DNA from: Parcubacteria group bacterium Gr01-1014_31
Lineage (GTDB): Bacteria > Patescibacteriota > Patescibacteriia > Buchananbacterales > GWA2-38-13
Direction of reading: 5' to 3'
Length of the DNA: 64,000 bases
NCBI GenBank assembly: GCA_007376135.1
Contig: VMFR01000006.1
Location: forward strand, 3,273 to 67,272
The first letter of the stretch is position 1, and every line of letters starts with the position of its first letter. The notes beneath the pieces were generated by a model that saw nothing but the letters and a program-made list of their open reading frames with translations, did no database searches and was not told where the DNA came from. The translations under genes and the position numbers were made by a program. Below, one piece after another: positions 25,701 through 55,829 of the stretch.

Positions 25701-28700
25701 TGCGCCGACAAACGGCGTCCATTGAGCGACCGCGGTCACCGTCAACTGCCGGTTATTCGCGCCGGCAGCCCCCGGAGCGCCGGCAATCGCCGGGTCGCTG
25801 GTGATCTGCCGCCACTCCCACCGGTAATTGACCGTGGGTATCAACTGCGCCCGCTGCGCCGGGTCAATATCCATCCAGAAGGTGCCGGTACGGGTGACTG
25901 CCGCATCGCTGAAGCTCATCCAAATCCCGCAACCCAGAACGACCGTCCCCGCGCTGTCCATCCGCGCCGCGGGCAAAAAGCCGCCGGGCAAAGACACGCG
26001 GGTGGCGGCCGCGCAGTCGTTGGCCGAGTTGGCGGAGATGGCGTAGTTCACGCCATCGGTGCTCGCTGGACAGATGAAGACGTTCGCGCTGCACCCCAAC
26101 ACTCCCCCAAGGGTTGGGGTTCCCACCCCAGCGCCGATACGCGTGACCGCCCCACCCACCACCGTTGCGGAACGCAACGGTCCCACAAGCGACGCATTGT
26201 AAACCTGCGAGTCGCTGGGCCGGACCTGGGCGAACGCCGGGTCCACTTCCACGTCGGTCGCGCGGCACACCTGCGTGCCAGTCCGGAACGTCCACCTGCA
26301 CTCGCCGGGTCGGCAGACCAACGGCCGCGGCGTGGCGCTCGTATCAAAGATAGCTGCGGCATTCGTTTCAAGATCAACTTCGTAGGTCGCGTTCTGCGCC
26401 CAGCGCGACCCGTTCGGCGTAATAGTTACCGCGTTCCCATTGACGAGGATTTGGGTCGCCGGTGTCGTGATGCCGTACGCCCCGCCGTTCTCCGCAAGCC
26501 GAACCTGTGCCCGCACGGTTGCGATATCCGGCGGAGCGCTGAAATGAACTACAATGGCTTCGTTCAAACACGCCTCGGTTGACCCTTCCGGCTGTTTGGA
26601 GGTGATGCGGAAAGGCCCGCCCGCGCCGCCCGTACCATCCGTCGGCACGATGAACGTGCCGCGGCCGACCACCGTGCCGTCGGCAGCCGTAATATTCGCA
26701 GTCCCGACCCCAATAGCTTCTACCAACTGGTGTGGGCTGGTGATAGTGCTCGCCGTCCCCGTCAGCAAACAGCTGTTGGTACACCCGTCGGTGTTATCGC
26801 CGCCGTATTCGCCGGTATCGCACTCTTCCCCGGATTCAATGTTGCGATTACCACAGACCGAGATGGGCGCCGCTTGCGCGTTGCCGGCAATGCCGGTGGT
26901 TGTACAATTTGTGGCACAATTCCCCACCGCCGCGCCCCGCGGCCGCCGGTTGTTGGCAAAATCGCTAGACGCACAGGACCCATACCAGATGGGCGCCATG
27001 CCTGCACCCGCCCCGCACACCTCACAGGCCTCGCCTGGCCCAACGATTCCGTCGCCGCAGACCGAACGGCCAAATCGCGGTCCTTCCAGTTGGCAATTAA
27101 CGCCGCAACCGTCGCCGGACAGCAGGTTGCCATCATCACATTGCTCCTCGCCGTTCTCGGGGATACCATCACCGTCATTTTCCACGATGCCATTACCACA
27201 CGCCCACGAAGCTACGCTCCCCGGTCGCACGGTATTGCCGGTATCGGTATCGGGGTTAATCTGGCAGGACGCGTCGCAGTTGTCGGTCGCAACGTCCGGC
27301 CCGTTGTCGCATTCCTCCCCCGTTTCCATCACCGCGTTGCCGCAGCCGTTCGTGCCGCCTGCCGGCCCAAGGATTGCCGCAACACCTGCGGCGGACGACG
27401 CCCATAGCCAATCAATGCTGAACGGGTCCAGACGCTGGCCGAGCGGGTCGCAGGCATCCGGGGTCTTTCTGGGGATGGCCGTGTACGGCACCCGCTGGGG
27501 TGGATACGCCGTCACGGTCGGCGGCGACACATCCACCTTGCTCACCGCGCAGAGCGAAAAATTCTCCTGCACCTTGAACACCCAGGAGTAAGAATCCAGG
27601 GTGCCGTTGTTATCAGCGTCAAAATTCAGTTTGCCCAGGCCCTTGCCCTCGGTGCTGGCAAGCCCCGTATCCGCGCCTGCTGCGTCGGTATCCGAATCCA
27701 ACACCACGCGGTAATACACGCCGGGGATGAGACGGCCGCCATTGTGGGCGTTGACGGGGCTGAATGTGGCAATCGTGCCGCCGCCGGACACCGTCACGCC
27801 CGTCAGACTCACTAAATTATCCGGATTCGGCACACAGATATAATCAAGCCCGCAAACGTACAGCCGCGTGTGATTAGTGTTGGAAAGCCGGTTGGCGTCC
27901 GCAGCATCATTTTCCATCGGCAGGGAGAACTCCACGCCTAGTTGCGCATTGGGACACGCCGACTGACAGTCCGGCCATTTGCGCAGCACCACCGGGGTAG
28001 CCAGGTCAACGGAAATTCTACATATACCGACTTCTGTCGTCTGCGCAGGAATGGTCACGGAAACATTCGTGCCTGAAGTTTGGCCTTGGGCAGTCGCCGT
28101 CTCGCGCTCGGTGGTGCTGCCGCCGATACTGACGCGCGCGGCGTCGGCGGTTGCCCATAACCACGTTGATGTTCGCAAATCCAATAACATGCAGGCGTTC
28201 TCGCTCGACCATGCCTCACCGGTCAAGGGCTGCGTATCGCCGCGACTGTAAAGAGCCGCCTGTTCCGGACTGCAGCCGACGCACCCAACCTGACCGGGAG
28301 CGATGTTGTTACGAGTCCGGAATACCCAGACGAAATTGCCCGTGCTCGGGTCGGTATTGGCCAACTGCTCCCCGCTGGGCGACCTGATATCCTTAGTCAA
28401 CGTAACCCGATACCAATGATCTTCCTGGAGCGGCTGTCCTGGGGCAAATGGCGTGAGTGTCACATTGATCCGATGAGCGCGAACACCATGGTAGACCCAC
28501 TCCACCAACGGTGTAACGGCGCTGGCATGATTGGTGGTGGCATCACAAGTTGCTGGATCGAAAGTTGCCCCGGTACCACAAAGTTCGACTTTGACGGTTG
28601 ACAAGGTCACCGTCGAGGGATCGAGCAAGCGATCGATACTGGCCGAGATCAGCGCATTGACCGGGACCTCGCTGCCCGGCGGCGGCGTCGGGCTGGAGTA

Positions 28701-31700
28701 GCCGCCCACAGAGCAATCCAGCGTCCGGGTACATTGCTGGATCACCCGCGGGCCGACCTTACCGGTAATGAAATGCCACCGATAGGAGCTTTGCATGGTC
28801 ACGCCGCCGCAGGAACCGGCGGGCGCGCACGACCCACTGTACGGTCCCACCGCGCAGCATTCTTGCCCACCCGTGCAGGCTTCCTGGCCGCGGCAGTCGC
28901 CGACCGAAAACAGCAGCGGGTTGCTATTCACAGGACCCGGATTTTGCACCCGCACGTCGCCGGTCACCGCGCCACCAGGGACGGTTGCCGTTAATTGATC
29001 GGCGTTGCTGGGATCACCCGATAATGAAACCGATGAAGGCGGCGCGATTACCGTTCCTGCTGATGCAGTGAATACCACTTGAGAGTCCGCAGGTGGATTT
29101 TTTACGAACCGCTCGCCGTAAATCGTAATGCGCGCCGTGCCCGCCGGCCCGTTGTCCGGCTGCAGTTTGCAAATCCCAGGGCCCGCAGTGCCGCCGACCG
29201 TCAGGTCGTCAAGAGCCGGACCGTTGGTGTCGGCGCTCGTATCGCGCAAACCCGCATCGGTCACCACTTCAATGGGGCCGGTGACCGCGCCGGTCGGCAC
29301 CTTCACCAGGATTCTGCTGTCGCTCCAGATGTCCGAGCCGCACTGCGATGGGAAGGTGAAATTACCGTTCCGCTTGGCTGCCTCCGTACACCCGGCATCA
29401 CCGCAGAATTTTACCGTCCCGCTCCCCTGCCGCCCGCCAAAGTTGGCGCCGATGATGGTGAGGTAGTCTTCGATTGCCGCATTGTGCGGAGCAGCATTCG
29501 GCCCGCTGAATTCCAAAATAACAGGGTGGTCGGCGCCGGGCTGCACACGAAAACCAAGATTGTTGCTGGGCTGCGAGCCGTCCACTTCCAGCCACACCCG
29601 CACAAGGCCTGGCACCAAGCTCGGCACCACGCCACTGTTGACTTCGGTATTGTTCCAGACCGACGGTACGCCGAACGCTGCCAAGTGGCCGCCAAACAGG
29701 ATGCGGTCATTGGTTGCATCGGCGTCCGTGCGCAGTAGCCGGATACCGTGAATATGCACGGGGTCCTTGAATTCGCCGGACGTCGGGTCAAGCCGACAGA
29801 TGCCGGGCAAGACCGCAGCTGGGTTTACATCAAAATCCGGGATGGCACGCTCGGTGCTCCGCGGCGCGTTGTTTGTAATATCCTGCTGGCCGTCGCCGGT
29901 GGTGACGCGAATCGGACCGTCCACCGCTCCGGCCGGCACCACTACAATGATCTCCGTATCCGTCCACGTGTTACCACAGGCCGCATTCACCGAGCCGGCA
30001 AGCCCTGCCACCACCCATCCGCCGCCATTTGAAAATTCAACCACGCTGCTGCCTGCAACGTAGGCGCCAAAATTGCGGCCGATGATGGTTACGAGGTTGC
30101 CAACCGCGCCGAACGGCTGGTCATCGTTGTACTGGTCGCCGTCGGGGTCCACGGGCGTGCCGTCGTTGTCCGTCTGCACGTCGTTGGCCGGGCTGACATA
30201 GTCAATGAACGGCGGTTCCACACACAGACAGCTGGTCGTGCTGCAACCGAATGCACACACGCTGTCGTTGGGTTGACACGCGGGTGTCGCAGTGTCGATG
30301 TCGCACGCTACGCCGGAACACGCGCCGCACTCTGATCCGCCGCAGTCCACCCCAAGCTCACCGGCAGCGGCATCTTGGACGCCGTTGCAGCAATGCCCTG
30401 GCCGCACCTGGTAGGTGCGCTCGCTGCGCGCCTTGTGGTCGTCAAAATCAAAGGCCTCGGCGCGCACCCGCAGCGATCCGAGCGGATAACCCGTCAAATC
30501 CACCGCGATGTCGGCAGTACCCGCGGCCTCGCTGCCTGCGGGCGTATCGTAGTCCGGCCAAACGATGGCGGGGTTGGTCAGGTTATCGAACGCGACCAGG
30601 TCCACGCCGGAATCGGGGTCGGAATAACTGGCGCGCAAATGCTGGCCCACATCGGCGCAAATGTTACCGGGCAGCAGGTTCACTGATGGGGCCTGGAGGT
30701 CAACGATATCGTTGGTCTTAAAGAACCAGACGCACTGGGAGCGGCAGAAACCGCCCGTACCGCAAGCAGCGCCCAGCGCCCCGCAAACTCCTGCCGGGTC
30801 GCTGCAAAATACCGCCGGGTCGCAGCTCACTGCCTGCCCGCCACACTGCAGCGGCGGCTGCACCGTCACCTTGTATTTCCGGTCGGACCGGAAACACTTC
30901 GCGCCGGTACCGGGACAAAAGGAATCGTCGAGCGGCTTGAACTCAGCACGACGGCCATTCGTAGTGATGGTTCCCGGCACCGAATTACCCCCGCAGGTTC
31001 CCAAACACTCGCCGGACAAACAAGCGAAGTCTGACAGGCAGACATCGCCATTACTGCCGGTAGCACCCGGTTCCTCCAGTTGCACCAAAAAATTCGTCTG
31101 CAGGTCTGCGCCCTGCACCGGGCCTTGGTTAAAATTCACCCGCACCACCGAGTTTTTCACGCGGTTATCACGGTCGGGGCTGACTGTATTAATACGGCAC
31201 GCAAGCGTGGTTCCACCTGGCCCCGGACCCGGTCCTGGCCCCGGACCACCGCCGCCGGCAACCGGCCCCGTCGCGGAGACCAGCGAACGGATGACGAAAC
31301 TGACAATGGCAAACGCGCCAAAAATGAGGAACAGCCCGATGACGGCTTCCACCAGGATACGTTTGGCTCGGTCCACCTTCTGCGGGTCGCCAGCTGCCGT
31401 CATCCACAACCACCCGGCGTAGATGATGATGAGTACGGCCACGACTCCCAGGAACCCGAACAGGACCTGGATGATGCGCATGATGGTCACGCGCAAATCC
31501 TGCGTACCCCACCCCACGATTGTCCCGAATCCCAGCCCTTCGTTCACCGACGCACCCAGCTGCGCGAAAGCGGGAGCGGCGACGGCAAGTCCGCCCGCCA
31601 GCGTCAGGGCGGCAGCCAGGGTCAGGTATTTTGTGGAACGGGATGGCTTCAGATATCGCGGTATCAAGTATGAAGTATCAGGTATCAAGGAAACCGTGTC

Positions 31701-31706
31701 GGCCAA
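13737..31706 (-). CDS. giant (5,989 aa) multi-domain surface protein with an N-terminal two-TM pilin-like module of the type IV secretion (VirB2/TrbC) type
   Basis: Uninterrupted 17,970-nt ORF. The N-terminus has a signal peptide followed by IMRIIQVLFGFLGVVAVLIIIYAGWLWMTAAGDPQKVDRAKRILVEAVIGLFLIFGAFAIVSFVI. This matches the conserved T4SS-pilin pattern (...LLGFLGVI..LIIYAGFLWMTAGGN...AKK.L...IIGL.I...AY.I). Recognisable passenger domains follow. These are Myxococcus-type Cys-rich repeats (CGNG..E.GEECDDGN...GDGC), IPT/TIG (LVTIIGRNFG, YLTIIGANFGG), two LamG/ConA-like domains, and an F5/8 type C discoidin-like domain. There is a fibrinogen-C-like domain (YCDMTTDGGGWTMVAR), at least four TSP3 repeats (DNCPxxxNPxQxDxD) and a C-terminal NHL-like beta-propeller. 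Start-codon assignment is uncertain (see findings). Confidence 0.85.
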   Translation of the reverse strand: MADTVSLIPDTSYLIPRYLKPSRSTKYLTLAAALTLAGGLAVAAPAFAQLGASVNEGLGFGTIVGWGTQDLRVTIMRIIQVLFGFLGVVAVLIIIYAGWLWMTAAGDPQKVDRAKRILVEAVIGLFLIFGAFAIVSFVIRSLVSATGPVAGGGGPGPGPGPGPGGTTLACRINTVSPDRDNRVKNSVVRVNFNQGPVQGADLQTNFLVQLEEPGATGSNGDVCLSDFACLSGECLGTCGGNSVPGTITTNGRRAEFKPLDDSFCPGTGAKCFRSDRKYKVTVQPPLQCGGQAVSCDPAVFCSDPAGVCGALGAACGTGGFCRSQCVWFFKTNDIVDLQAPSVNLLPGNICADVGQHLRASYSDPDSGVDLVAFDNLTNPAIVWPDYDTPAGSEAAGTADIAVDLTGYPLGSLRVRAEAFDFDDHKARSERTYQVRPGHCCNGVQDAAAGELGVDCGGSECGACSGVACDIDTATPACQPNDSVCAFGCSTTSCLCVEPPFIDYVSPANDVQTDNDGTPVDPDGDQYNDDQPFGAVGNLVTIIGRNFGAYVAGSSVVEFSNGGGWVVAGLAGSVNAACGNTWTDTEIIVVVPAGAVDGPIRVTTGDGQQDITNNAPRSTERAIPDFDVNPAAVLPGICRLDPTSGEFKDPVHIHGIRLLRTDADATNDRILFGGHLAAFGVPSVWNNTEVNSGVVPSLVPGLVRVWLEVDGSQPSNNLGFRVQPGADHPVILEFSGPNAAPHNAAIEDYLTIIGANFGGRQGSGTVKFCGDAGCTEAAKRNGNFTFPSQCGSDIWSDSRILVKVPTGAVTGPIEVVTDAGLRDTSADTNGPALDDLTVGGTAGPGICKLQPDNGPAGTARITIYGERFVKNPPADSQVVFTASAGTVIAPPSSVSLSGDPSNADQLTATVPGGAVTGDVRVQNPGPVNSNPLLFSVGDCRGQEACTGGQECCAVGPYSGSCAPAGSCGGVTMQSSYRWHFITGKVGPRVIQQCTRTLDCSVGGYSSPTPPPGSEVPVNALISASIDRLLDPSTVTLSTVKVELCGTGATFDPATCDATTNHASAVTPLVEWVYHGVRAHRINVTLTPFAPGQPLQEDHWYRVTLTKDIRSPSGEQLANTDPSTGNFVWVFRTRNNIAPGQVGCVGCSPEQAALYSRGDTQPLTGEAWSSENACMLLDLRTSTWLWATADAARVSIGGSTTERETATAQGQTSGTNVSVTIPAQTTEVGICRISVDLATPVVLRKWPDCQSACPNAQLGVEFSLPMENDAADANRLSNTNHTRLYVCGLDYICVPNPDNLVSLTGVTVSGGGTIATFSPVNAHNGGRLIPGVYYRVVLDSDTDAAGADTGLASTEGKGLGKLNFDADNNGTLDSYSWVFKVQENFSLCAVSKVDVSPPTVTAYPPQRVPYTAIPRKTPDACDPLGQRLDPFSIDWLWASSAAGVAAILGPAGGTNGCGNAVMETGEECDNGPDVATDNCDASCQINPDTDTGNTVRPGSVASWACGNGIVENDGDGIPENGEEQCDDGNLLSGDGCGVNCQLEGPRFGRSVCGDGIVGPGEACEVCGAGAGMAPIWYGSCASSDFANNRRPRGAAVGNCATNCTTTGIAGNAQAAPISVCGNRNIESGEECDTGEYGGDNTDGCTNSCLLTGTASTITSPHQLVEAIGVGTANITAADGTVVGRGTFIVPTDGTGGAGGPFRITSKQPEGSTEACLNEAIVVHFSAPPDIATVRAQVRLAENGGAYGITTPATQILVNGNAVTITPNGSRWAQNATYEVDLETNAAAIFDTSATPRPLVCRPGECRWTFRTGTQVCRATDVEVDPAFAQVRPSDSQVYNASLVGPLRSATVVGGAVTRIGAGVGTPTLGGVLGCSANVFICPASTDGVNYAISANSANDCAAATRVSLPGGFLPAARMDSAGTVVLGCGIWMSFSDAAVTRTGTFWMDIDPAQRAQLIPTVNYRWEWRQITSDPAIAGAPGAAGANNRQLTVTAVAQWTPFVGARQADIEAFYPPDGVSGLARFAVGNLCQLPYRSGTRYNIYPLQPGVDTTVIGHFDGVPRLDLGNGRTLEPSTQVGLTYNNGLTDGGTARLGQAVTFDADTDLLEYPAAGLFDPRQGTVSLWLRSRESLATSRTLLATTNDLFNIIFTSVGGFSTVRINYGGIQVAMNGAQFATVGDEWHLVVASWEIQGADVVVGMSLDGQPPVVARGAVAPIVVDGTTRLRVGNDFIMAATDARADIDELELGQGVMDAQEIEARYQAVAAQCISGASLAGAPQVDRCTPTGTADACTDAGVVNCSSPQISVTFDGPMDRESLLRRDGTGFYDNVLLCSDTDYTDGGGCMPDENLIQELAYNPISERLSVVRPTNLPTSDTADLRYHMVLKVGADRIVGVSGLPLNGGIGGDVHWDFSIARGARQCRCDAVRAWLMPKGVYGFQDQFACAGNTCQGDLDLAVTGNQHAYDAECYDRSAGQPAASVTYQWREAYDVNGAVNLSCSVVAGCTTATALDDSTLITTNTFVNGEARVAVVATGSGATQGRAEQLVDITNFVCANPWPDPWVFPWKDTSVFPIGAGATDNKAPYTNFELFYCRDLNRTPSANDDLPPVQAPPTVRASSLPKQFLFPLNYFQETPAVQIIQGTDMQVAGSNNFLTTLMARTGSAGDTQCMMGNTGAVVQLAYALNVPETGHYQVAFEVVNNDPDFEPASAISIAIDHDRDGAVDAPEQARILPSLELSSRQIVTFDLGQARSDVDAGRPLLVAFRYENDDATQNGNETIAVCRIGFGKANIKHDVIGVQVLANPWRVSPGTWYASGICSNASFRCSDNLSVVDCAGRTLGATCADGSGTCSEPEDIASLNGLCFGDADCVTGRCVYNVPNRGKSPQSTLVDGYSAIRDGRTVYVGATNLVTLTAGDNSACDSNGAVCSVGNNGPCAGGVCQAQKLFANIYLMSYNEGAGEQTLSIFDELSRNWKFNTDLVSVGACAAMSCSEAGGNCSALRCSDTGDVFAGCAAAGNPCDGDGDAGTAGVCIQPGVGDSCGTAGVCSNVACANDLDCPGQADNSCLNPQSKIRRDAIRFGQLQDLQLALRASARKRGGFPLWDAVRREFTGGTYVPGHSFSVWPSWGQTFAQQLGGVPPTDPINQFVGCIPPYDSKTCWDEQGLRFGCPLRAYVYGYSVDRTRNGQGYRLYTRLEFPKERGGWREGSESVSGMGDACFNFLALGEGDADRDGVRDDQDNCPNNANPYQCLGGAQPDGTLCPSGTNRECGNAGTCWQMDSDINPTNIARGKEPISSPFFSFTSDNVNSGHFFDNVSYWAPANVNQAGHTQNAYIGINLGRAMRFNQVRVFPNPGTPTTFFQRFEVQVSNDPFFSAGQFTVVATENNWPGTVAGRFIGVQERISNFTDHRGVNCPTSTNPPNDPICDPPGVMYNFPEQYAQYVRLYRTTGTDIPNVSPPTDRLSELEIWSTVDGFGDVCDPCPNSGENDLDHDGVCENGLDNPQYGYRPDNCPDVPNPDQRDADSDNTGDACDTNCAQDLDRDGQCDAVDNCPTVYNPSQTNSDGALAVPAAQQRRYCVAQVDIGGGVIATARPGEAGRDCTIAPNTCFDSAGVVRAELCQQQSPDVHAGQVWPNGREWGDACDLCTDPDSDGWGSGLPAESCRRDNCQLTGAQLSQGFNPGQEDYDNDGTGYRCDSCIDSDNDQLTDQLVGNSSFEDGLNGWQMFASAGADAHLRQATDYRRLSDFHPSNNHARAYRGVHSAEILIQNLAPGQYLALRSARNPQFLQTSPDYPVKYVMQARVRPSDPQMVGRLRFRPIRACTRFQVKAPLHGLEYRVSCQDPPDGPVLGDGLGFRLPLREPVWVQDLGDGWYSLRSNFEINRSLANDPIAFELALENAITSPVIFGNNASLNVDDFTVGFRRDNEGESCQRPGWPPLGWDPGQETYRPMDNCRVLNNPTRCVGGRFHGAICNSSADCVNPPRGNVKALTLFERSGEIKSYAFDTGIGGAELTTDIPSEQAAATGLGVNGNPAQDCDLWTSEGECYDLYWSNAAGTDDPAGLFLAIDAYRDPAATGPGHNVDAVRLDLVTNAVVYAQRISGAPVVEAGSTPNAEAALGSPNSITTALGNGTTKLVLDFGLAGSQPFFASCLEILRAGASSDGVAPDGNNWYQIDVNRDGTGVEQVYCDMTTDGGGWTMVARMDDSDAKRWTARYNHDPNPAAPDEGMDATWWFDGAPHNAGRGGTDDYKARAFDTIPVADVMVTIHPDAYSFPVAGAYTPGAAGQEIYAVWRNGVADGLKTFADLSLWKAAYCPQYDPEAAVKSGSRGGGSLVPSPFQCGNRPTLKASTDTSASGDFIAIVERFRSDSDGVALPLLYRDSQTGATIAASTRNNVHSILLRNWHDLPDSTNSAFVRGSITFSSAGVTIIGWAIDNGTPESEAALNALDREFSVTGGLLTVGESSTNRRYEIPPLSAGCWPAPGCGVWNFNDYARVTGATTAEFGMAANTGADDARLLFTYDPGVGPITATVQLEGSPDPALHGYLQDLVVCDREATGTAAGGARRFTVTINEMVDPVRGIVLGPRDSERAGDYCVKKADVPGIGNDLSDPTAEGDEAEISVVAMMSQGDVLNPGPQGLGNWYDGGAGGGAGSGTFNDFTSINAGTGFPLLNAANYGQLWFRERPVFTGAVPGVGAVPGATVGGGVGVCMQPDYDEDNVGDLCDRCTDRDNDRFGDAGFNVSSCPGSFFKSDNCPATYNPDQADYDQDANACRFDTLQPYVSVSSDVASCNDSLGFRLGGSCQFCGGDACDLDADGDACYNWEQLKRQPGHDVNARLYPGRTIAELPSPNYRVFREEGYARTLSHDEVSWRSFARDADVDGIADDCDAQACGNREVENVRQAAPLASLADVASVTVYEITSADTNATVFTFPATDARLIQQVSEADGQLAIGGDAAAQARCDAWTSSGECYDFYWSNMDGTLNPDGGYFTSVAWRNPAAATDGNNLDAVEIRFTAASGRSPIFASGWTAMYAGTCDAGPCTEARPDAALGPRDCPNPFPGGSHTCLTRIGDGRSSITLGFDTEDIVNQCFDPVRGVQTCEECDSNNFNVGSNCDKPYTTGSSATYRQIYPLQRVASDLFLAHFDGVLPGALDARRGDGSVVRPMAGATVSSLADGLTDGSQDAAGNPVKLGSSLVFNPGDALVYDMPAGANNVYGPGDRSVTMWVNVKDRVDELTLADISGAVIELGTAWQPNTWHHVAVTWRATDAGGGTFTFDNIRLFLDGLPRNISLPAGSVSPPPNLDISWWLWVLGLHTSQVWLDELEFRSEILTDAIISARVSAIRNQCLGPVSESLTLYMVDNFCASCNNLRCQIETLRTCMPIKVDVLTVPPTIVHTPYLWAAQSGANRITQMVAVDGVMKPGTADVYPIGTVVHEYRICDSGGNVYRCNDGGGNCNADFMSVGDTCSDGSGQCEKAYCVLDFPRMNSAGDTQLCGPAGCVTVTATANTNKTIPDNPATTNVYEGEGFPCFDGNTTVGDGCNTTCPAGTARDCGSEIGNPSRTAVNVEAGQAWIVDRGTEKVTMLDEGLGVVKICKGVKGNGANGKGVAIDSEGFAWVGEFDDPGRLFRLDNSNDECTPERSTEGRLWTYGLAVDQQDNIWISGRSQNVIRKIGGLLDPGNAGRAGLVCGTDISCNLVPRGGIYGIAVDLDGRAWVGSFDGGGGVDRVNADLSYDRFSNGATRGVGITTKGNMLLAQPGGPHVRELTTDGVLVKDHPLPAGNRAAYGASGDSMGCIWAISESGGSACRIVPPSTPTCGANPLGVPTQCFPLSNRNPGGGAPYMYSDFLGLNRTLVLRENAVAFPPGDADALSAFDTTVTSWSRRWGKILYDKVERGGSYINIYVYTSDDVNGFPPVDSDMWIPVDERNTTRDRDNFNARIGESPLITSNQFPAPGELVGRYLKFKIVTRSDRDGNASEITNLRITCLERVNGVDRYICQ
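31373..31577. repeat. roughly 200 bp DNA repeat (about 85% identity to 34596-34800) encoding the shared pilin-like module
   Basis: A run such as ...cactcccaggaacccgaacaggacctggatgatgcgcatgatggtcacgcgcaaatcctgcgtacccc... is nearly identical to 34670-34740. Confidence 0.7.
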
Positions 31707-31745
31707 TCCTTAATACTTGATACTCAATACTAAATACTCCACTAA
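31655..31745. promoter_or_regulatory. two inverted arrays of four tandem heptads (NNATACT x4 and GTATCAN x4) spanning the annotated start of the giant ORF
   Basis: Plus 31714-31741 reads TAATACT TGATACT CAATACT AAATACT. Plus 31661-31688 reads GTATCAA GTATGAA GTATCAG GTATCAA. The same NNATACT x4 array recurs at 36519-36546. The region is AT-rich in a 65% GC context. Confidence 0.45.
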
Positions 31746-34700
31746 TTCGTGCACGGGGTTGCCCGCGCGGTTCCGTTGCAGCAGTACTTGTTGACGCGGT
31801 CGGTGTTGCACGCGCCGCCGCCGGAGTTTGGCCCCTCGGACGGCAGGTAGCAGTTCTGGTACAGGTCCTTGATGCCCGAACCCATGTCCGCGCCGTAGCG
31901 GCTGTACTCGGCCAGCGGCGTGTGGTTGATCTGGACCTCGGTGAAATCCGGATACCCGTCGGACGTGGAATCGCGGCCGACGTTGGTTATCCACCACCCC
32001 GAGCAGCGGCCGCCGCTACCGCACGCATAATCCTTCAGCGTCACGTGCTGACGCGTCTGGCAAGAAAAACCGCTCGCTGCACCCGTGCGGTTCTTACAGT
32101 CGCCATCGACCTGGCAATAATTATCCTGGCCCGACTGGCTGCGACAGGTGAAAGAACCCCCGCCGCCGTTATCGCACACTTCACCGGTCTTGCAATCGTT
32201 GTCCACTGTGCACCCGCAACGCCCGTCGCGGTAGCGGTTGTCCGGCTTCAGGCTGGACGACGAGAGGAGCTTATCAAATTGCGCCGTTGGTAAGGTGGTA
32301 ATGGGCAGCCCGACGCCGGGGTCAGTGGCGGCAACGTCCATGTTCGGCGCAATTCCGTCTTCGTTCGGGGTGATTGGCCCGGCCGTGTCGATTTTGATGG
32401 CGGGCGGCTTCAGTTCCAGCCGGTTGCTGGCCCAGAACGTCCACTGCACGCCGTCGCCATTTGAAGCAATTGAATCATTCAACGAATGGTAGGGTGACGC
32501 TGGACCCGGCAAGGGACCCTGCGCGCCGTTCACCTTGTTGCCGTCCAGCGAATTTTGCGCGGCATCCATCGCGCCGTCGGGCGGCGTACGCGACGTTGGG
32601 AAATTTTGGAGAGCCGAATTTACGCAGATGCCTGCGGCGTTGCAATCCGGGAACGAAGAGTCGTAACAGTCGTTCGCGGTGGACGCATCACCTTCATTGC
32701 ACTGGTACAGTTGCGCCGCCTGCACGCGGATTTGGTAGCGGGTGACTCCGGCGATATTGCCGGCAACCGGTTGCACGGTCGGCAAACAGTAGATCTGGTC
32801 GCCGCAGGAGTTGCGAACGGCATTGCAGGTGGCACCTCCGCCTCCGCAGTCGGCATCTCGGACGCACGGCGAATCCGAGTTGCTGCATAAGCCGCACAGC
32901 GTCGCGGACTGGAATTCCACGGTCTGGTACTGGTTGGAAATGATGAACGTGCCGGCCACGAACTCGTAGGCGTCGAATGTACCGTTATTATTCAAGTCAG
33001 CCTGAATAGTTACGAACGGCGGGTCAGTTGAATCCACTAAGGAACCAACATTTTCGTAATCAGGTTGGCCGGCCCCAGATTCCGCGCCGTCGTTCACCGC
33101 CACGGGCACCAGCACCGGACCGCTGACGGTGAGCGGGAACATCGCTTCCGAATAATCAAACCTCGGCACGGCGTTGCGGGCGACGTCCAGCGCTTCCACA
33201 ATGCCGCCCGCGCCCAGGGTTTGCGTGAATCCGGGGTCGCGGCCGCCGCTGAATGGCGGAACAGATACGGCCGCCCAGCCGCCCGATGGCGTGATGCGAA
33301 TACGGTTGCCTGCGGCCCCGGCAACGGTGGCAGTCAACGTGACAGTATCGGTTCCACCGGAAGCCCCGGACACGTCCGGATTTTGCACTTCCGCGGTAAG
33401 TTTGGTGGCGATGTTATTGGCGATCTGCAATGGCGTGAGCGGCGTTGCCGGCGGGCCGACCACGATTTCTGTTGCGCTCCCGCCTGCATCCACGAACGTG
33501 TACGTCGGGCTCTGTCCTACGCGCAACGTGTCGGCTGGCCGCGTGGCAATGGCTCGGAAACGCCATTGGTTGCCATCCTGAATATCTCCCGCCGCTATTG
33601 CTGCGGGAATATCGCTGATATTCACTCCACCATCAACAAACCCGATAGCCACACTGCAGCCAAGGGTAATGCTGTTGCCGCCCACCACGCCGTTGGTCAG
33701 CCACCCGCCGAACGCGACATCGGGTGCGGTGCAATCCGCAGCTGATACGGATTTCGGGTGAACTTCAAAACGGTTCGCCCCGCCGTTATATCTCACGCAG
33801 ACCAGATTATCCTGTGCGCAGGTGTACGTGGTTGTGCGCAGTGATGCGTCAGGAGAGGCCGGCACGTCTTTACCAAGATACGACGTTTGCGCCACCTGGA
33901 GCGTATTTGGCCGGCTATTCACCTTTAGCGACCCCGTTGCCCGTACGGCCGCCTGGTCGGCATACGTATCTTTAGTATCGTCCGGCTGCGGGAACACGAC
34001 ATCCAACGTCGGCGGCGTCAGGTCCAGCCGCGTACCGACGGTGAAAGTCCAGGAATAACCACCCTCATCGGGGCCACCGCACCTCGTGAAAGCGTTATTA
34101 CCATCTGCTTTCTTGATTCCACATCCCAAAATCACTCTGTAGCGCACGTCGCGCACGCCATCGCCCAAGTATGGTAAGGAATCAAAGGTGAATGTCAGGT
34201 TATCGCCGCTTGCGGCATTAACGTCGGCTGATAATAGGGCGGGTAGCAACACGTTATTTTCATCATACGCTCGGATGAGGATTTGGCCGCTAATCTTGTC
34301 CACGCCGCCAATGGTTTGCAGCAGCGTTGAGCGGTCCATCAGCTCCTTGAACGTCACGAAAATCAACGTGTTCCTCGGCACATCCCGAGCCCCTGGCGCC
34401 GGGTACACGCTTTCAATGATACCCGCGCCCAGCGTGTCGCAGTTGGTACACGGCAGGGTCGGCGGTGGGCGTCTGGTTCTCCCCTGCGGCCCGGCAGCGT
34501 CGGACAACGCCCGGATGACAAAGCTGACAATGGCAAATGCCATGAAAATGACCAGCAGCCCGAGCGCCGCGTTGATGAGCGTACGCTTGGCTTCGTCTAT
34601 CTTTTGCGGGTCGCCGCCCGAGGTCATCCAGCGCCAGCCGGCATACAGGATGATGAGCACCGCGACCACTCCCAGGAACCCGAACAGCACCTGGATGATG

Positions 34701-34909
34701 CGCATGATGGTCACGCGCAAGTCCTGCGTGCCCCACCCGACGATAGTGCCGTAGCTCAACCCTTCGTTGACCGAGGCGCCGAGCTGCGCGGATGCGGGCG
34801 CAGCAACAAAAACGGCTACCATCAGGGTCAGAACGACCACGCCGATGGTAGCCGAAAATTTCGACCACGACGCAACAATCTTTTGTTTTTGGTGCCCGCT
34901 CGACTGCAT
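31742..34909 (-). CDS. large (1,055 aa) surface protein with the same N-terminal T4SS-pilin-like module; passenger with Ig-like and Cys-rich domains
   Basis: The N-terminus (...AQLGASVNEGLSYGTIVGWGTQDLRVTIMRIIQVLFGFLGVVAVLIILYAGWRWMTSGGDPQKIDEAKRTLINAALGLLVIFMAFAIVSFVIRAL) is about 85% identical to the giant protein over about 140 aa and diverges completely afterwards. The ATG is preceded by GGAGTGA. Confidence 0.8.
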   Translation of the reverse strand: MQSSGHQKQKIVASWSKFSATIGVVVLTLMVAVFVAAPASAQLGASVNEGLSYGTIVGWGTQDLRVTIMRIIQVLFGFLGVVAVLIILYAGWRWMTSGGDPQKIDEAKRTLINAALGLLVIFMAFAIVSFVIRALSDAAGPQGRTRRPPPTLPCTNCDTLGAGIIESVYPAPGARDVPRNTLIFVTFKELMDRSTLLQTIGGVDKISGQILIRAYDENNVLLPALLSADVNAASGDNLTFTFDSLPYLGDGVRDVRYRVILGCGIKKADGNNAFTRCGGPDEGGYSWTFTVGTRLDLTPPTLDVVFPQPDDTKDTYADQAAVRATGSLKVNSRPNTLQVAQTSYLGKDVPASPDASLRTTTYTCAQDNLVCVRYNGGANRFEVHPKSVSAADCTAPDVAFGGWLTNGVVGGNSITLGCSVAIGFVDGGVNISDIPAAIAAGDIQDGNQWRFRAIATRPADTLRVGQSPTYTFVDAGGSATEIVVGPPATPLTPLQIANNIATKLTAEVQNPDVSGASGGTDTVTLTATVAGAAGNRIRITPSGGWAAVSVPPFSGGRDPGFTQTLGAGGIVEALDVARNAVPRFDYSEAMFPLTVSGPVLVPVAVNDGAESGAGQPDYENVGSLVDSTDPPFVTIQADLNNNGTFDAYEFVAGTFIISNQYQTVEFQSATLCGLCSNSDSPCVRDADCGGGGATCNAVRNSCGDQIYCLPTVQPVAGNIAGVTRYQIRVQAAQLYQCNEGDASTANDCYDSSFPDCNAAGICVNSALQNFPTSRTPPDGAMDAAQNSLDGNKVNGAQGPLPGPASPYHSLNDSIASNGDGVQWTFWASNRLELKPPAIKIDTAGPITPNEDGIAPNMDVAATDPGVGLPITTLPTAQFDKLLSSSSLKPDNRYRDGRCGCTVDNDCKTGEVCDNGGGGSFTCRSQSGQDNYCQVDGDCKNRTGAASGFSCQTRQHVTLKDYACGSGGRCSGWWITNVGRDSTSDGYPDFTEVQINHTPLAEYSRYGADMGSGIKDLYQNCYLPSEGPNSGGGACNTDRVNKYCCNGTARATPCTN
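34596..34800. repeat. roughly 200 bp DNA repeat, the partner of 31373-31577
   Basis: See 31373-31577. Confidence 0.7.
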
Positions 34910-34915
34910 GCTGTG

Positions 34916-35326
34916 TCACTCCCCCACCCTAACTCCTCTCCCTGAGGGAGAGGGTGGCCCCAGGCCGGGTGAGGGCTCTATTCTTTTTATTAGACAATCA
35001 ACTATTTTCTGATATACGGCTTCAACATTGTGATCAACCTCGTTATTCCACACGCGAATTACTTGATAGCCAAGCTCGTGGAGGTATCCATCGCGTACCG
35101 TGTCGCGGAATCGTGCGAACATTTCATTATGTCCTCCACCGTCAAGTTCGACCACCAGCCCGGCCTGAACGCAGCAGAAGTCCGCAACATACTTACCGAT
35201 AGGGTACTGACGCCGGAATTTATACCCGAGGAATTGCCGATTTCGTAGTAAACTCCAAATCCTGCGTTCTTGCGGTGTCGTACTCTTCCGTAACTGGCGT
35301 GCGATTTTCGTTAATCCTTTCTGCAT
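34916..35326 (-). CDS. DUF559 (Vsr-like endonuclease fold) protein
   Basis: The sequence ...ARQLRKSTTPQERRIWSLLRNRQFLGYKFRRQYPIGKYVADFCCVQAGLVVELDGGGH... is the DUF559 signature. GC is about 48% against about 65% in the flanks. The track ORF starts at GTG 35341 and the start is set at MQKGL. The C-terminal tail PSPGLGPPSPSGRGVRVGE is encoded by a flanking hairpin repeat. Confidence 0.75.
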   Translation of the reverse strand: MQKGLTKIARQLRKSTTPQERRIWSLLRNRQFLGYKFRRQYPIGKYVADFCCVQAGLVVELDGGGHNEMFARFRDTVRDGYLHELGYQVIRVWNNEVDHNVEAVYQKIVDCLIKRIEPSPGLGPPSPSGRGVRVGE

Positions 35327-35376
35327 GACCAGTGCCCTCACCCTACCCTCTCCCTCAGGGAGAGGGAGTGCGTGCC
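34921..35376. mobile_element. low-GC DUF559 insertion bounded by imperfect inverted repeats containing CTCTCCCTNAGGGAGAG hairpins
   Basis: The left element at 34921-34977 reads cccaccctaactcctctccctgagggagagggtgg...gggtgagggc. The right element at 35334-35376 reads gccctcaccctaccctctccctcagggagagggagtg. The termini gggtgagggc and gccctcaccc are reverse complements. Confidence 0.35.
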
Positions 35377-35822
35377 GGAGATAGGACCTCCTTCACCAGC
35401 TTGCTCACGACAGTGCCATCCGCGCTGGAGCCCGCCTGCTTCATCACCGCACCCATCACCTTGCCGAAATCCTTGGTGCTGGTCGCGCCGAGCTTCGCGA
35501 CCGTTTCCTGCACGAGCTTTTTCAGCGCCGCAACGTCCGGACCAGCGGACAGGTAGGTTTTCAATACCTGCACTTCCGCAGCTTCTTTCTCCGCCAGGTC
35601 CTGCCGGTTGCCGCGCTGGTATTCCACAATTGCTTCCTCGCGGCGCTTCACCTCCGTACGCAGGACTTTTATCTCGTCGGCTTCCGCCAGCGGTTCCGGG
35701 CGCTTGGCGATGACCGCCTGCATCAGGGAAGATTTCACCATCCGCAGGGTACGTAAACTCACCTCATCACGCTGTTTCATGGCGCGATGGAGGTCGTGTT
35801 CGACGCGTTCGAGCAAGTTCAT
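35355..35822 (-). CDS. yqeY: GatB/YqeY domain protein
   Basis: 155 aa with the typical YqeY pattern (MNLLERVEHDLHRAMKQRDEVSLRTLRMV...LKTYL...). Located downstream of rpsU as in many bacteria. Confidence 0.8.
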   Translation of the reverse strand: MNLLERVEHDLHRAMKQRDEVSLRTLRMVKSSLMQAVIAKRPEPLAEADEIKVLRTEVKRREEAIVEYQRGNRQDLAEKEAAEVQVLKTYLSAGPDVAALKKLVQETVAKLGATSTKDFGKVMGAVMKQAGSSADGTVVSKLVKEVLSPARTPSP

Positions 35823-36834: not shown

Positions 36835-39800
36835 ATGTCTCGGATTCAGAATGTTCTGGTCGTCTTCGGTCGCCAAAGCTCTGCGTCAGCGACGCTCGTC
36901 GGCATCGTCGTCGCCCTGGTCGTCTCGACGGCTCCTGTCGCCACTCCCGTCCTGACTGTCGCCACGGTCATCGCCCTGCCCTCCCCCATCCACGCCCAAG
37001 TCCAACCTCCGAAGGTGGAGTGGGAACGGATCTACTACGACTTTGACTTTAGTGGTTTTGTTGAGAACGAAAACCTGTCAGTTCAGCAAACCAAAGACGG
37101 GGGGTTCATCGTAGTTGGTCGAACAGAGTCATCTGAGGCTAGATTGAGTGATATCCTGCTGCTAAAAACTGACACCGAGGGAAACCCAACGTGGCAGAAA
37201 ACGTATGGCGGTACAGGTGAAGATTGGGGATATTCGGTTCAACAGACCGCTGATGATGGTTACATCATAACAGGATACACCACCTCCTTTACTACCGGGA
37301 AAATTTACCTGCTAAAAACTGACACCGAGGGAAACCCAACGTGGCAGAAAACGTATGGAGCACCCGGCGATTTAGCCTGGTCAGCGCAACAAACCAACGA
37401 TGGGGGTTACGCTATCGCTGGTTCTGGATTTTCACTTGCCCGAGCTGGCGAGGTGTATGTGGCCAAAACTGACACTATTGGTACTGTAATCTGGCAACAA
37501 ACCTTCGGTGGTGAAAATGAAGACTCCGGCCACTCAATCCAGCAAACCTTTGGTGCTGATAAAAGTCCTAATGGTTATATAATAACCGGCAGGACGGATT
37601 CCTTCGGCGACGGAACGCCCCTTCATCCAGACGTCTACCTACTGAAAACTGACAATACAGGATCCTTGGTTTGGCAACAGACCTTCGGTGGACCGGCTAA
37701 CGACCAAGGCTGGTCGGCCCAACAAACTAGCGATGGCGGTTATGTACTAGCCGGATACACATTTTCTTTTGGTATCAACGGCGATGTCTACCTAATCAAG
37801 ACCGACGTCACCGGTTCCCTGGTTTGGCAACAGACCTATGGTGGATCATTAGGAGACACAGGAAGATCAGTCCAACAAACTACCGATGGTGGGTACATTA
37901 TTGCAGGTGAATCTCGGTCATTTGGATCAGGTAACGAGGATGTCTACCTAATCAAGACCGACGTCACCGGTTCCCTGGTTTGGCAACAGACCTATGGTGG
38001 TGCAAATCACGACTTGGGATTCTCAGTCCAACAGACTGTTGATGGTGGCTACATCGTGGTAGGATATTCCAATTCATTTAATCCTGCCAACTGGTGTGTC
38101 TACCTCGTCAAACTCGGCCCCGAGCGACCTACTCCCCCCACCCGCCACCAGCTGCACCTGTTCCGCGACAACCAGTTCGTCCCCCTCACCGATGAAGCCA
38201 GAGCAGACTTCGACCCCCAACTCCCCGCCATCGTCATCGTCCACGGCTGGAACAGCCACCTCCTCGACCAGCTCCCCGACTGGACCCTGCAGACCGCCCG
38301 CGCCCTGGCTGCCCGCGATACCAACCCCTACGTCAACCTCTTGGCCTGGGACTGGATGCTGGAAGCCAAAGGCAACGCCACCACCACCCTCAACCCGTTT
38401 GGCCTAGAAAAAGCCGCTGCCGAAGTCTACGACCAGTCAGCCAAACTGGCTTCCGCCCTGCGGCAAACGTTTGCCGCCCGCGGATTCACGCTACCGGTCC
38501 ACCTGATGGGCCACAGCCTGGGGTCGTTCGTAGTGACCTTCACCGGGCTGCAGCTCCAAGACCCGGCGTTCGGGACCACCTACGACGTCGCCAACGTTAC
38601 CCTCTGGGACCCGCCAGACGCAGTCCCCAACAGCCTGGCCGACAACGTCCCCTTGCTGCGCAGCCTGGGCACCTACGTCGACAACTTCCGCGGCGCCTTC
38701 AACCGCAAAACGTACTTCGCCAACGCCTGGGTAGCTGCCCCGTCGGCCAGCGACGACGGCACCACGTCCCACGACACCTACCGCTGGTACCGCGACCGCG
38801 TCCAGCCTGCCGACGAACCCATCCTCCACACCACCCTCACCTGCACCGACGATCGCTACAACGGCACCGTCGGCTTCGGCGCCTCGGCCACCCACGCGCC
38901 ACCCACGCGCCAGCTGCGCTTCCCGTGCGATGCGGGTAACCTCGGCATCTCGCTAGTTGCCGACTCCGCCGATACGCGCTGCGCGGACGCCCGCGACCTG
39001 ACCATCTACGGCCAGTACTGCGTGGCGGATGCCCGCACGACCCCCGTCCTTACCCTCAAATTGGATACTGGCGTTGGCAGCAACCTCTGTGATTGCCTCC
39101 TTCCCACCGACCTGGAGCTGCGCATGAGGATCAAGCCTCGGCAAGCGCTTCGGGGACAAGGTGGAGCCGATGACGACCTGACCGCCACCTACACCCTGCC
39201 CCTCACCGTCGCTGAACCGTGGGATTTCCTGCAGTTTAGCTACCAGTTCGTTGCCGTTCCGGCCCCCGCCGCGCTCACCGTGAGCGTCATTGACGGCGTT
39301 GACGAAACGCCGCTGCTGGCGCTGACGTCGGAGCAAAACCCCATCGGGGTTGAACGGCTCTCGCCGCTGCTGGATATTTCGTCCTTCCGCGGCAAAACCG
39401 TTGACCTGGTGTTTTCGCTCACGTCCTCACAGGAGGGCGCAAGCGTTGAGGTTGCCAACCTCACAGCGCTGCAAAGCGCGTTCCACGCCAACGTCCCGCC
39501 CACCGTGTCCGCGGGTGCAGACCAAGCCGTCGCCGTTACCGACCCCCTCTTCACTGCCGTTACCCTGAACGGTTCGGCCACATCGGACCCCAACGGCGAC
39601 CCGCTCGTGTACGCGTGGACGCTGCCCTCCGGTATTGCGGCCGTCGGTGTACAACCGACGCTCGCCCTGCCCCTGGGCGGCTACCCGTTCACGCTGCATG
39701 CGCGCGACCCGTTCGACGGGTTTGGGTTCGACGAGACCGTCGTCGAGGTGGAGTATCCGTTCGTGCGCGGCGATGCCAATGCCGATGGCGAAGTGAACAT

Positions 39801-55773: not shown

Positions 55774-55829
55774 AAATTCCGTTCTGTCAATGAAGGTTAA
55801 ATAATTATTGAATGACCTCATCGTGCACG

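Follow-up and report, generated by a model that had tools for sequence, protein, structure and literature searches.

A Tandem Pair of Very Large Genes with VirB2-like Pilin Modules in Patescibacteria: Conserved Passengers and Concerted Evolution of the Modules

Introduction

A large share of bacterial diversity belongs to the Patescibacteria, which are thought to live attached to other cells. In a window of DNA from this group (the whole 64-kb stretch analyzed here), two neighboring genes, designated S and G, start with similar modules and continue into long, different passengers, which raises the question of what the common module is and how it has stayed alike in both genes. A first-pass annotation of the window had suggested that homologous recombination between the two 5′ modules would delete the intervening gene or swap passengers, in the manner of antigenic or adhesin variation systems. 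The type IV secretion system (T4SS) of Patescibacteria and its VirB2-like pilins are reportedly essential in the one species tested. A recent survey reported no adhesin for the T4SS and detected no adhesins in its Patescibacteria dataset (PMC12102498).

Organization of the Two Genes

The source contig belongs to Parcubacteria group bacterium Gr01-1014_31, an uncultured, ultrasmall member of the Patescibacteria in the class ABY1. As first annotated, S and G are tandem and co-directional; they are separated by 35 nt. Their main features are the following:

31742 to 34909, minus strand: gene S, an open reading frame of 1,055 aa (ORF list, translation)
34787 to 34909, minus strand: signal peptide of S, aa 1-41, with an A-S-A / Q type I cleavage motif at its end
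34487 to 34807, minus strand: pilin module of S, aa 35-141 (BLASTP against the G module, alignment with stand-alone pilins)
13737 to 31706, minus strand: gene G, an open reading frame of 5,989 aa (ORF list, Pfam, NCBIfam)
31263 to 31583, minus strand: pilin module of G, aa 42-148 (BLASTP, nucleotide alignment, PF18895)
28761 to 30317, minus strand: conserved core of the G passenger, passenger aa ~316-834, with a TIG domain and Cys-rich motifs

Behind its signal peptide, S has a VirB2-like pilin module and a Pro-rich linker, then a Big_5 Ig-like domain and further β-rich, Cys-rich domains; its sequence is a 100% match to P0024 of Parcubacteria group bacterium Gr01-1014_31. G likewise has a signal peptide and a VirB2-like pilin module, followed by a (Gly-Pro)n linker and a giant passenger in which Pfam and NCBIfam detect TIG, Big_5, Laminin_G_3, TSP3, discoidin-like, and fibrinogen-like GGGW domains. 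The listed start codon of G is TTG, and an internal TTG a few codons downstream may be the true start. A promoter and terminator scan of the locus gave nothing above shuffled expectation; no terminator appeared between S and G, which would fit co-transcription without being proof of it. Proteins of this kind are currently labeled "hypothetical", "membrane protein of unknown function", or "TrbC/VirB2 family protein".

An AF2 model of S, of moderate quality (pLDDT 69), has a helical N-terminus followed by β domains; the pilin module itself is poorly modeled, with helices at residues 64-96 and 101-137 of low confidence. Foldseek searches with this model retrieved only generic Ig-like, CopC, NCAM, and SdrD folds, and no enzyme or specific receptor-binding fold.

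A VirB2-like Pilin Module at Both N-Termini

Both modules match PF18895 (T4SS_pilin) above its gathering score of 26.6, with 39.3 bits for S and 34.3 bits for G, and S also matches PF13205. The matches to PF04956 (TrbC) are below the cutoff of 27.9 (21.4 for S and 19.9 for G), those to VirB2 structures in the PDB (8cue, 8exh) are weak (E 0.6-0.8), and NF045849, a Mycoplasma ICE pilin family, matches the module near its cutoff. The closest homologs of the module are 115-147 aa long, and stand-alone pilins of 120-130 aa align with it end to end, stopping exactly where the linkers of S and G start. With up to 64% identity, the module is as similar to stand-alone pilins as these are to one another, and G, W, M, and A positions in it are invariant across the family.

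Of the traits of the pilin superfamily, S and G have the type I signal peptide and a pair of hydrophobic helices with a short charged loop between them, and the small stand-alone size (about 100-150 aa) is absent. The S module is predicted to start with a short exposed N-terminal segment, followed by helix 1, the charged loop (SGGDPQKIDEAKR), and helix 2. The junction of signal peptide and module reads ...AAPASA/QLG..., and cleavage of the S signal peptide there is suggested by the sequence motif, the same AxA-Q site being present in the aligned stand-alone pilins. The signal peptides of S and G are dissimilar except for about the last seven residues.

In the protein library, the module occurs alone (120-150 aa), as 2-17 modules per chain, or N-terminal to passengers of 487-4,334 aa. 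One protein (P0055) has six pilin modules in one chain, which suggests that a C-terminal extension is compatible with the topology of the module. A stand-alone copy (P0001) is encoded elsewhere in the same metagenome-assembled genome (MAG), and tblastn found no third copy of the module within the 64-kb window. The idea in the first-pass annotation that the module is a reusable device thus holds as far as a self-contained, reused PF18895 unit is concerned, and a role in export and anchoring is predicted. It should be noted that short pilins were all that a search with the single 107-aa module retrieved, and even S and G were absent from its output. This reflects how the word index restricts such a search and is not a sign that fusions are rare; the fusions were recovered by passenger searches and by a profile search of the full library.

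Conservation in Related Genomes

A search with the full-length S alignment identified at least 584 relatives among GTDB species representatives, and the pair occurs in hundreds of species-level genomes. The S passenger has 31 homologs, down to 25% identity, 29 of which carry both PF18895 and PF13205. The core of the G passenger has 189 relatives in metagenome contigs, and BLASTP and alignment place it at ~30% identity to the G genes of other species; in the sister species (L001), the G ortholog is 81% identical.

Among 78 evaluable species loci, 71 have G as the gene immediately downstream of S; among 66 evaluable metagenome loci, 64 have S upstream of G. When the genes downstream of S were compared by BLASTP, the G passenger was homologous in 72 of 75 loci. 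Both the S-then-G order and the identity of the passengers stay unchanged even where the S passengers of relatives share only 26-37% identity. S occurs without G in 7 of the 78 loci and G without S in 2 of the 66, the neighborhood being otherwise similar in the latter. The modules of these two G-only loci score as ordinary G modules (S minus G -5.6 and -8.1 bits), a result that neither supports nor excludes a crossover near the 5′ end.

Several neighbors accompany the pair:

12846 to 13730, minus strand: T1, a single-pass membrane protein of 294 aa with C-terminal bacterial TSP3 calcium-binding repeats (Pfam PF18884)
11786 to 12682, minus strand: T2, 298 aa, with a central transmembrane segment and TSP3 repeats (Pfam)
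10673 to 11608, minus strand: X, a single-pass membrane protein of 311 aa with a Pro/Thr-rich linker and a TSP3-like motif (sequence)
35355 to 35822, minus strand: yqeY (Pfam), an upstream neighbor of S that is conserved within this clade, a synteny marker and not a functional part

T1 lies directly downstream of G and has homologs in 80 other loci, on the S/G strand in all examples listed. Homologs of T2 were detected in 80 other loci and those of X, which has no Pfam match, in 66. The yqeY gene has the same position in L001 and L002, and YqeY homologs are present in 34 loci. Besides yqeY, the housekeeping genes hisS, lepB, der, dprA, topA, ftsA, and ftsZ surround the locus, and the neighborhood is common to the window and Buchananbacteria. 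On the best reading, S, G, and the three small calcium-repeat membrane proteins form a conserved cassette for pilin-anchored surface proteins.

Sequence Likeness and Concerted Evolution of the Modules

In the window, BLASTP of the N-termini gives a sole significant segment, in which aa 35-141 of S and aa 42-148 of G are identical at 86 of 107 positions (80%, E=1e-49). The passengers are thus unrelated in sequence, save for Big_5-type Ig domains in both; the first-pass statement that they diverge completely is correct apart from these domains. At the DNA level, the common block is 321 nt long (34487-34807 and 31263-31583) with 77.6% identity, and begins ~100 nt inside each gene; no alignment extends over the first 34-41 codons, which encode the cytoplasmic N-terminus together with the greater part of the signal peptide.

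These values replace several of the earlier ones. The similarity described there as ~85% identity over the first ~140 codons is real, but lower and confined to 107 codons, and a shared 5′ segment of 420 nt was an overestimate. The ~200 bp of near-identical DNA had been placed at 31373-31577 and 34596-34800, which is 1 nt out of register: for this 205-nt block, an offset of 3223 gives 24% identity and one of 3224 gives 82.4%. Near identity is also too strong a description, the longest exact run in the window being 32 nt (34689-34720 and 31465-31496). This run lies within the most similar stretch of the two genes:

31444 to 31505, minus strand: 62 nt with 2 mismatches to its partner at 34668-34729

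Over the 20 codons of this stretch, dS is 0.15, compared with 0.79 across the window modules, and the stretch may be what is left of a conversion tract. Synonymous differences occur in 33 of the 86 codons with identical residues.

Across the family, the modules evolve in concert. S and G modules of the same genome share 62% identity on average (74 species), compared with 47% between S modules, 46% between G modules, and 46% between S and G modules of different genomes. The excess of ortholog over cross-type identity is 0.28 in close genome pairs and vanishes in distant ones, with the within-genome value staying near 0.62, and identity within a genome exceeds that between orthologs in 95% of genome pairs. 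For 33 S modules, the best match among 74 G modules is the one in the same genome. Variable columns, such as 20, 22, 26, 42, and 98, have an identity of 0.57-0.91 within genomes and only 0.13-0.45 between them. GC content was considered as a cause of the likeness within genomes and rejected, cross-genome identity being 0.460 for genomes of similar GC and 0.456 otherwise.

Conversion tracts are present in some species. Exact S/G tracts of 92, 68, 64, and 44 nt were found in L051, L027, L054, and L043, respectively, at different positions of the module. In a run-length permutation test, 12 of 74 loci reached P<=0.01 against an expectation of 0.7, and 12 of 74 loci have a same-codon excess with z>3. 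The evidence for conversion from the window alone is modest: z is 3.5, the run-length test is marginal (P=0.023), and the dS of 0.79 between its S and G modules stands against a value of 1.0 when the S passengers of the window and the sister species are compared. In the comparison with L001, module orthologs are closer than paralogs, which implies that no conversion has taken place since that split. In about 50 of the 74 species, the synonymous sites of the modules are at codon-usage expectation, so the likeness within those genomes could be maintained by selection alone. Homogenization is also incomplete, since type-specific residues remain at a few positions, and HMMs built for each type tell S and G apart by about 6 bits. 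Taken together, gene conversion is the likeliest cause of the concerted evolution of the modules.

Interpretation

We consider it probable that S and G form a fixed gene pair of ancient origin in ABY1, coding for pilin-anchored surface proteins, in which episodic conversion homogenizes the modules and the passengers remain fixed. Each protein is a complete VirB2/TrbC-like pilin whose C-terminus runs via a flexible linker into a large, β-rich, Ig-like, calcium-binding passenger of the adhesin type. After cleavage of the signal peptide, the helical hairpin would sit in the membrane with both ends outside, such that Sec would export the passenger behind helix 2 for display at the cell surface. 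Either the hairpin alone might hold the passenger there, or the module might be built into the VirB2-like filament of the cell's T4SS. Short-tract gene conversion between the tandem copies would repeatedly homogenize the modules and leave the passengers in place, and selection to fit the same partner or machinery probably reinforces this. In the window, the last homogenization would be old, preceding the split from L001, and with their present identity at the DNA level the two modules are a weak substrate for recombination.

The proposal that the common 5′ module is a recombination handle for deletion or exchange of passengers, and thereby for adhesin or antigenic variation, appears scarcely credible by comparison. 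The tandem, co-directional copies with 321 nt of homology would allow it, module recombination evidently occurs in the family, and two G-only and seven S-only loci exist. However, the homology is on one side only, so that a single crossover can delete but never swap; the S-only loci are not the product of a module-to-module crossover, and the predicted deletion product, G without S, appears in just two of 66 evaluable loci, whose modules look like ordinary G modules. Within the window, exact identity is limited to 32 nt, and no silent or partial cassettes were detected, both copies of the module heading complete open reading frames with their own signal peptides, which also speaks against the likeness to antigenic variation seen in the first-pass annotation. 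Between species, the handle is largely refuted by the fixed order and the orthologous passengers, even where the latter are highly diverged. What stands of that proposal is recombination between the 5′ modules, which seems real at the family level in the form of gene conversion. A simple ancient duplication followed by independent evolution, with strong purifying selection on the pilin sequence keeping the copies alike, is very improbable as well. It would agree with the conservation of the module and its invariant residues, with the saturation of synonymous sites in most species, and with the closer orthologs in the window; yet purifying selection alone predicts ortholog identity at least equal to paralog identity at all depths, and the opposite is found in nearly all genome pairs. 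The same residue is carried by both paralogs at variable columns, 33 S modules have their same-genome partner as the top match among 74, and exact tracts reach 64-92 nt. Independent duplication of the pair in each lineage is contradicted by the orthology of both passengers.

Selection alone might also couple the modules if both have to fit the same partner, be it a major pilin, an assembly platform, or each other. The nearly constant likeness within genomes, even with saturated synonymous sites, and the persistence of type-specific positions would be expected from such co-evolution. The unlinked stand-alone pilin of the MAG has an identity of 0.61 and 0.56 to S and G of the window, against a mean of 0.43, a biased comparison that is uninformative on this point because the stand-alone pilins were chosen by similarity to the window S. 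Selection on protein sequence, however, produces neither exact DNA tracts of 64-92 nt nor the same-codon excess, and the matches at many variable, surface-exposed N-terminal positions are more simply explained by copying; as the sole cause, it is unlikely. A stronger contender, though still a doubtful one, is that the hairpin is a mere N-terminal membrane anchor for surface fibrils, with no polymerizing role and no link to the T4SS. This would suit a locus that is set among housekeeping genes and whose partners T1, T2, and X are simple membrane-anchored calcium-repeat proteins. Neither a T4SS gene within the 64-kb window nor one adjoining the stand-alone pilin of the MAG was found, so a link to pili is conjectural. 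On the other hand, the MAG is listed as VirB4-positive (Table S1 of PMC12102498) and has a stand-alone pilin, the full pilin sequence pattern is retained with up to 64% identity to stand-alone pilins, and concerted evolution would make more sense if the module had a partner to fit.

As complete VirB2-like pilins with very large Ig-like calcium-binding passengers, the proteins of the pair are obvious candidates for the role of T4SS adhesin. More speculatively, and with less likelihood than the mere anchor, S and G could be the missing adhesins of the Patescibacteria T4SS: minor pilins within, or capping, a filament of the stand-alone pilin, which would display host-binding passengers of 900 and 5,800 aa and whose modules conversion would keep compatible with the major pilin. 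If so, they would be the first "modular pilin" of the VirB2 family and a direct handle on host attachment in CPR bacteria of the class ABY1. Apart from any function, the pair is a clean natural case of domain-restricted concerted evolution, in which ~320 nt at the 5′ ends have been kept alike over a long time and the downstream parts evolve separately.

Comparison with Known Systems

Literature searches retrieved CPR pilin arrays, the unrelated Pam donor-strand pili, and giant genes of Omnitrophota, and gave no account of pilin-fused giant proteins or of the S/G pair.

Arrays of VirB2-like pilins in Patescibacteria were described earlier (Wang et al. 2023, Cell; Quinonero-Coronel et al. 2025, PMC12102498). 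As in S and G, tandem PF18895/TrbC-VirB2 genes are found in VirB4-encoding CPR genomes, with several paralogous pilins per genome, and the pair is itself an array in the sense used there, namely at least two pilin-profile genes in tandem or one gene apart (PMC12102498). The CPR arrays consist of small pilins, usually near virB4, with a mean identity of 25% and a maximum of 54% within an array (PMC12102498). S and G differ from such highly divergent members in that their modules are 80% identical in the window (mean 62% in 74 species), and also in their passengers of about 900 and 5,800 aa, the distance from T4SS genes, and the conserved yqeY-S-G-TSP3 cassette.

With regard to adhesive pilins, PilB and PilC of Streptococcus sanguinis are modular type IV pilins (Raynaud et al. 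2021, PMC8179133), in which a pilin module likewise serves as the carrier of a C-terminally grafted adhesive module, displayed in that case by the filament. Type IV pilins belong to another superfamily: their signal peptide is of class III with a site for a prepilin peptidase, and the only hydrophobic helix is the N-terminal one, whereas S and G have an AxA type I site, a two-helix hairpin, and a PF18895 match, and match no type IV pilin family. Their passengers are also 10-60 times larger, and their incorporation into a filament would be hypothetical.

Two further groups of systems resemble the pair in the recombination of surface-protein genes. In Neisseria pilE/pilS, Borrelia vlsE, and Anaplasma msp2, the conserved part provides the homology, as it does in S and G, but one expression site is served by silent partial cassettes and the variable part is diversified. 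In S and G, both genes are complete, expressed units; it is the conserved part that is copied, and the variable passengers are fixed. The tandem trwL (VirB2) paralogs of the Bartonella Trw T4SS, studied by Nystedt and colleagues in 2008, are reportedly more alike within a genome than between species, which was attributed to recombination. In these proteobacterial pathogens, whole small pilin genes are amplified 5-8 times, whereas in S and G homogenization affects just the 5′ module, the two giant genes being otherwise unrelated.

Two pilin-headed genes and their shared module

S and G, each encoding a pilin-like module followed by a linker and a C-terminal passenger, are tandem minus-strand genes separated by 35 nt:

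31742-34909, minus strand: gene S, ORF of 1,055 aa
13737-31706, minus strand: gene G, ORF of 5,989 aa
34487-34807 (S) versus 31263-31583 (G), minus strand: shared DNA block of 321 nt, 77.6% nucleotide identity

By BLASTP, aa 35-141 of S and aa 42-148 of G are identical at 86 of 107 positions (E = 1e-49), and this comparison gave no second significant similarity between the two proteins. The first-pass annotation had described a common 5' end of 420 nt, in part near-identical. The similarity is real and far above chance but was overstated, since it is confined to the 321-nt block, no exact run exceeds 32 nt (over the best stretch, 62 nt, there are 2 mismatches), and codons 1 to 34-41 of the two genes show no likeness. 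The 205-nt pair singled out earlier was one base out of register and is 82.4% identical once the offset is corrected. A TTG is listed as the start of G; the real start may be another. Upstream of the signal peptide, G has an N-terminal extension (31600-31706, minus strand) with a short direct repeat, SLIPDTSYLIPRY, with TGATAC-type repeats in the DNA.

Both N-termini match PF18895 (T4SS_pilin, a VirB2/TrbC-like pilin typical of bacteria in the CPR, the Candidate Phyla Radiation) above the Pfam gathering score. The closest relatives of the module are stand-alone pilins of 115-147 aa, and alignment with them indicates that the module spans an entire pilin (signal peptide to AxA|Q, short exposed segment, helix 1, charged loop, and helix 2). 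Stand-alone pilins stop exactly at the point beyond which S runs on into QGRTRRPPPTLP and G into (GP)n. Many library proteins contain 2-17 tandem PF18895 modules per polypeptide, such as P0055 (6 modules, 552 aa) and P0061, and these poly-pilins predominate among the best-scoring matches in the PF18895 library search. The earlier idea of a reusable pilin module is thus upheld. Domains found in the passengers include Big_5, TIG, Laminin_G_3, TSP3, discoidin-like, and fibrinogen-like domains. In the AlphaFold model of S (pLDDT 69), a helical N-terminus is followed by beta domains, and the sole fold matches of the model are Ig-like.

Conservation of the S-G pair

Homologs of the S passenger (n = 31) were found down to 25% identity, and 29 of them combine the pilin module with Big_5. 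S followed by a giant pilin-headed gene also occurs in the sister-species locus (L001) and in a Buchananbacteria locus (L002), where the S passenger is 34% identical; the gene order dprA-der-lytR-GDPD-lepB-hisS-rpsU-yqeY is common to the window and both loci. With one genome scanned per species, at least 584 S relatives were obtained. Among the best 80 of these, a long ORF headed by a second pilin module lies immediately downstream of S in 71 of 78 evaluable loci, and G passengers are homologous to that of the window, via a core of ~500 aa, in 72 of 75. A reverse scan seeded with this core retrieved 189 metagenome relatives, in which a pilin-headed gene lies upstream of G in 64 of 66 evaluable loci. 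In a subgroup of species (L025, L029, L030, L036, L044, and L070), S is followed by a gene of ~350-380 aa in place of G, at position ~12.4-13.6 kb of each locus, with otherwise similar surroundings.

It had been proposed that recombination between the two 5' modules swaps passengers or deletes the intervening gene, as in antigenic variation. The homology of S and G is one-sided, and therefore deletion is possible and exchange is not. Between species, the retention of the pair and the homology of its passengers speak against passenger swapping, and no sign of passenger exchange was seen among the S-G loci of the relatives compared. As for switching by deletion, just two of the 66 evaluable metagenome loci (L109 and L129) have G only, and their modules are of the ordinary G type. 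Because order and passenger homology are kept across relatives, the S-G pair is a fixed cassette of long standing whose passengers are stable. Neither deletion-switching nor antigenic variation is supported.

In the window, G is directly followed downstream by three genes (T1, T2, and X) whose products are small membrane proteins bearing calcium-binding TSP3 repeats. Their homologs were found in 80, 80, and 66 other loci, respectively, on the same strand as S/G in every example listed. A PF05635/bAvd-like four-helix-bundle gene is located between S and G in L001 (7347-7694, plus strand) and nearby in L002 (1119-1481, minus strand). This family has been linked to diversity-generating retroelements; no reverse transcriptase was seen in the flanks around the gene in L001 and L002.

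Concerted evolution of the modules

Averaged over 74 genomes, S and G modules from the same genome share 62% identity, whereas S-S, G-G, and S-G comparisons between genomes all give 46-47%. Within-genome paralogs are more alike than orthologs in 95% of genome pairs, and for 33 S modules the top match of the 74 G modules is that of the same genome (about 1 expected). Orthologous modules are nearer in very close genome pairs (0.92 vs 0.64); this advantage falls steadily with distance to zero in distant pairs, where within-genome identity is still ~0.62. Such a pattern is the signature of concerted evolution, and an ancient duplication followed simply by independent evolution is ruled out. Similar GC content as the cause of the same-genome likeness was also tested and rejected.

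In some lineages at least, gene conversion is indicated at the DNA level. S and G share exact tracts of 92, 68, 64, and 44 nt, at differing module positions, in four species (L051, L027, L054, and L043, respectively), a longest-run permutation test reached P <= 0.01 for 12 of the 74 loci (0.7 expected), and identical codons at identical residues exceed the codon-usage expectation (z > 3) in 12 of 74. Recombination between the two modules, as suggested in the first-pass annotation, is supported at the level of the family. In ~50 species synonymous sites are saturated, and in these either conversion happened long ago or selection for a common partner keeps the modules alike; a few type-specific S/G positions survive. 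In the window, dS between S and G is 0.79 (0.15 in the central 20 codons of the module); between the window and L001, it is 0.33-0.37 for the orthologous modules and 1.0 for the passenger of S. Together with the same-codon excess (z = 3.5) and the run-length test (P = 0.023), these values fit a conversion that came before the window and L001 split, and no later exchange.

Source genome and surroundings

Parcubacteria group bacterium Gr01-1014_31 has a protein that matches S at 100% identity; the MAG of this bacterium (1.34 Mb, class ABY1) is listed as VirB4-positive (PMC12102498 Table S1). The window is ordinary chromosome with ftsZ, ftsA, hisS, lepB, der, dprA, topA, and yqeY, and no T4SS genes were found within its 64 kb; the MAG also has a stand-alone pilin, which adjoins metK on a different contig. 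Other features include:

34916-35341, minus strand: DUF559 (endonuclease-like) gene between yqeY and S
4930-5081, minus strand: AdoCbl (B12) riboswitch, above the Rfam gathering score
51856-53802, minus strand: large secreted-type protein, dockerin and GHL15
54460-55848, minus strand: large secreted-type protein, MopE-like metal-binding repeats
59397-61382, minus strand: large secreted-type protein, FG-GAP and dockerin
36835-40026, plus strand: large secreted-type protein, lipase/alpha-beta hydrolase and PKD

The DUF559 gene looks like a small insertion, since it is missing from this position in L001, L002, and every other fetched locus. A 21-nt palindromic motif, CCCTCTCCCT[C/G]AGGGAGAGG, brackets the gene in two copies (34935-34955 and 35345-35365) and has no further copies in the window. 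The riboswitch lies at the 5' end of the gene for a 669-aa protein (prenyltransferase/squalene-cyclase-like, DUF4430, and CarboxypepD_reg domains) and overlaps its listed GTG start. The GC content of the 36-38 kb region is 0.50, compared with about 0.62.

Possible topology and role

VirB2/TrbC/TraA pilins have both termini outside the membrane and the inter-helix loop inside; once assembled into pili, they have their termini on the outer face. By analogy, a passenger C-terminal to the pilin module would be extracellular, because the pilin termini lie outside. Poly-pilin chains of up to 17 modules suggest that a C-terminal extension is compatible with pilin topology. S and G would then be surface-displayed, adhesin-like proteins held by the pilin hairpin, and the two proteins may be incorporated in the VirB2-like T4SS filament or may just be membrane anchored. 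The TSP3 repeats in G, together with T1, T2, and X, suggest a calcium-dependent surface assembly.

Comparison with known systems

Tandem VirB2 genes of the Bartonella Trw system reportedly evolve in concert (a study cited in PMC12102498). Fusions of VirB2-like pilins to giant passengers, and the S-G cassette itself, were not found described in the literature searched, and database records name such proteins as hypothetical or "TrbC/VirB2 family protein". The VirB2 arrays described in CPR consist of 2-11 small genes that are at most 54% identical and often near virB4, and no adhesins were detected in that study (PMC12102498). In type IV pili, carrier pilins with grafted modules are known (PMC8179133). 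What gives the present finding its weight is the conserved joining of a pilin to an adhesin-like passenger, along with a concerted evolution restricted to one domain, rather than switching.
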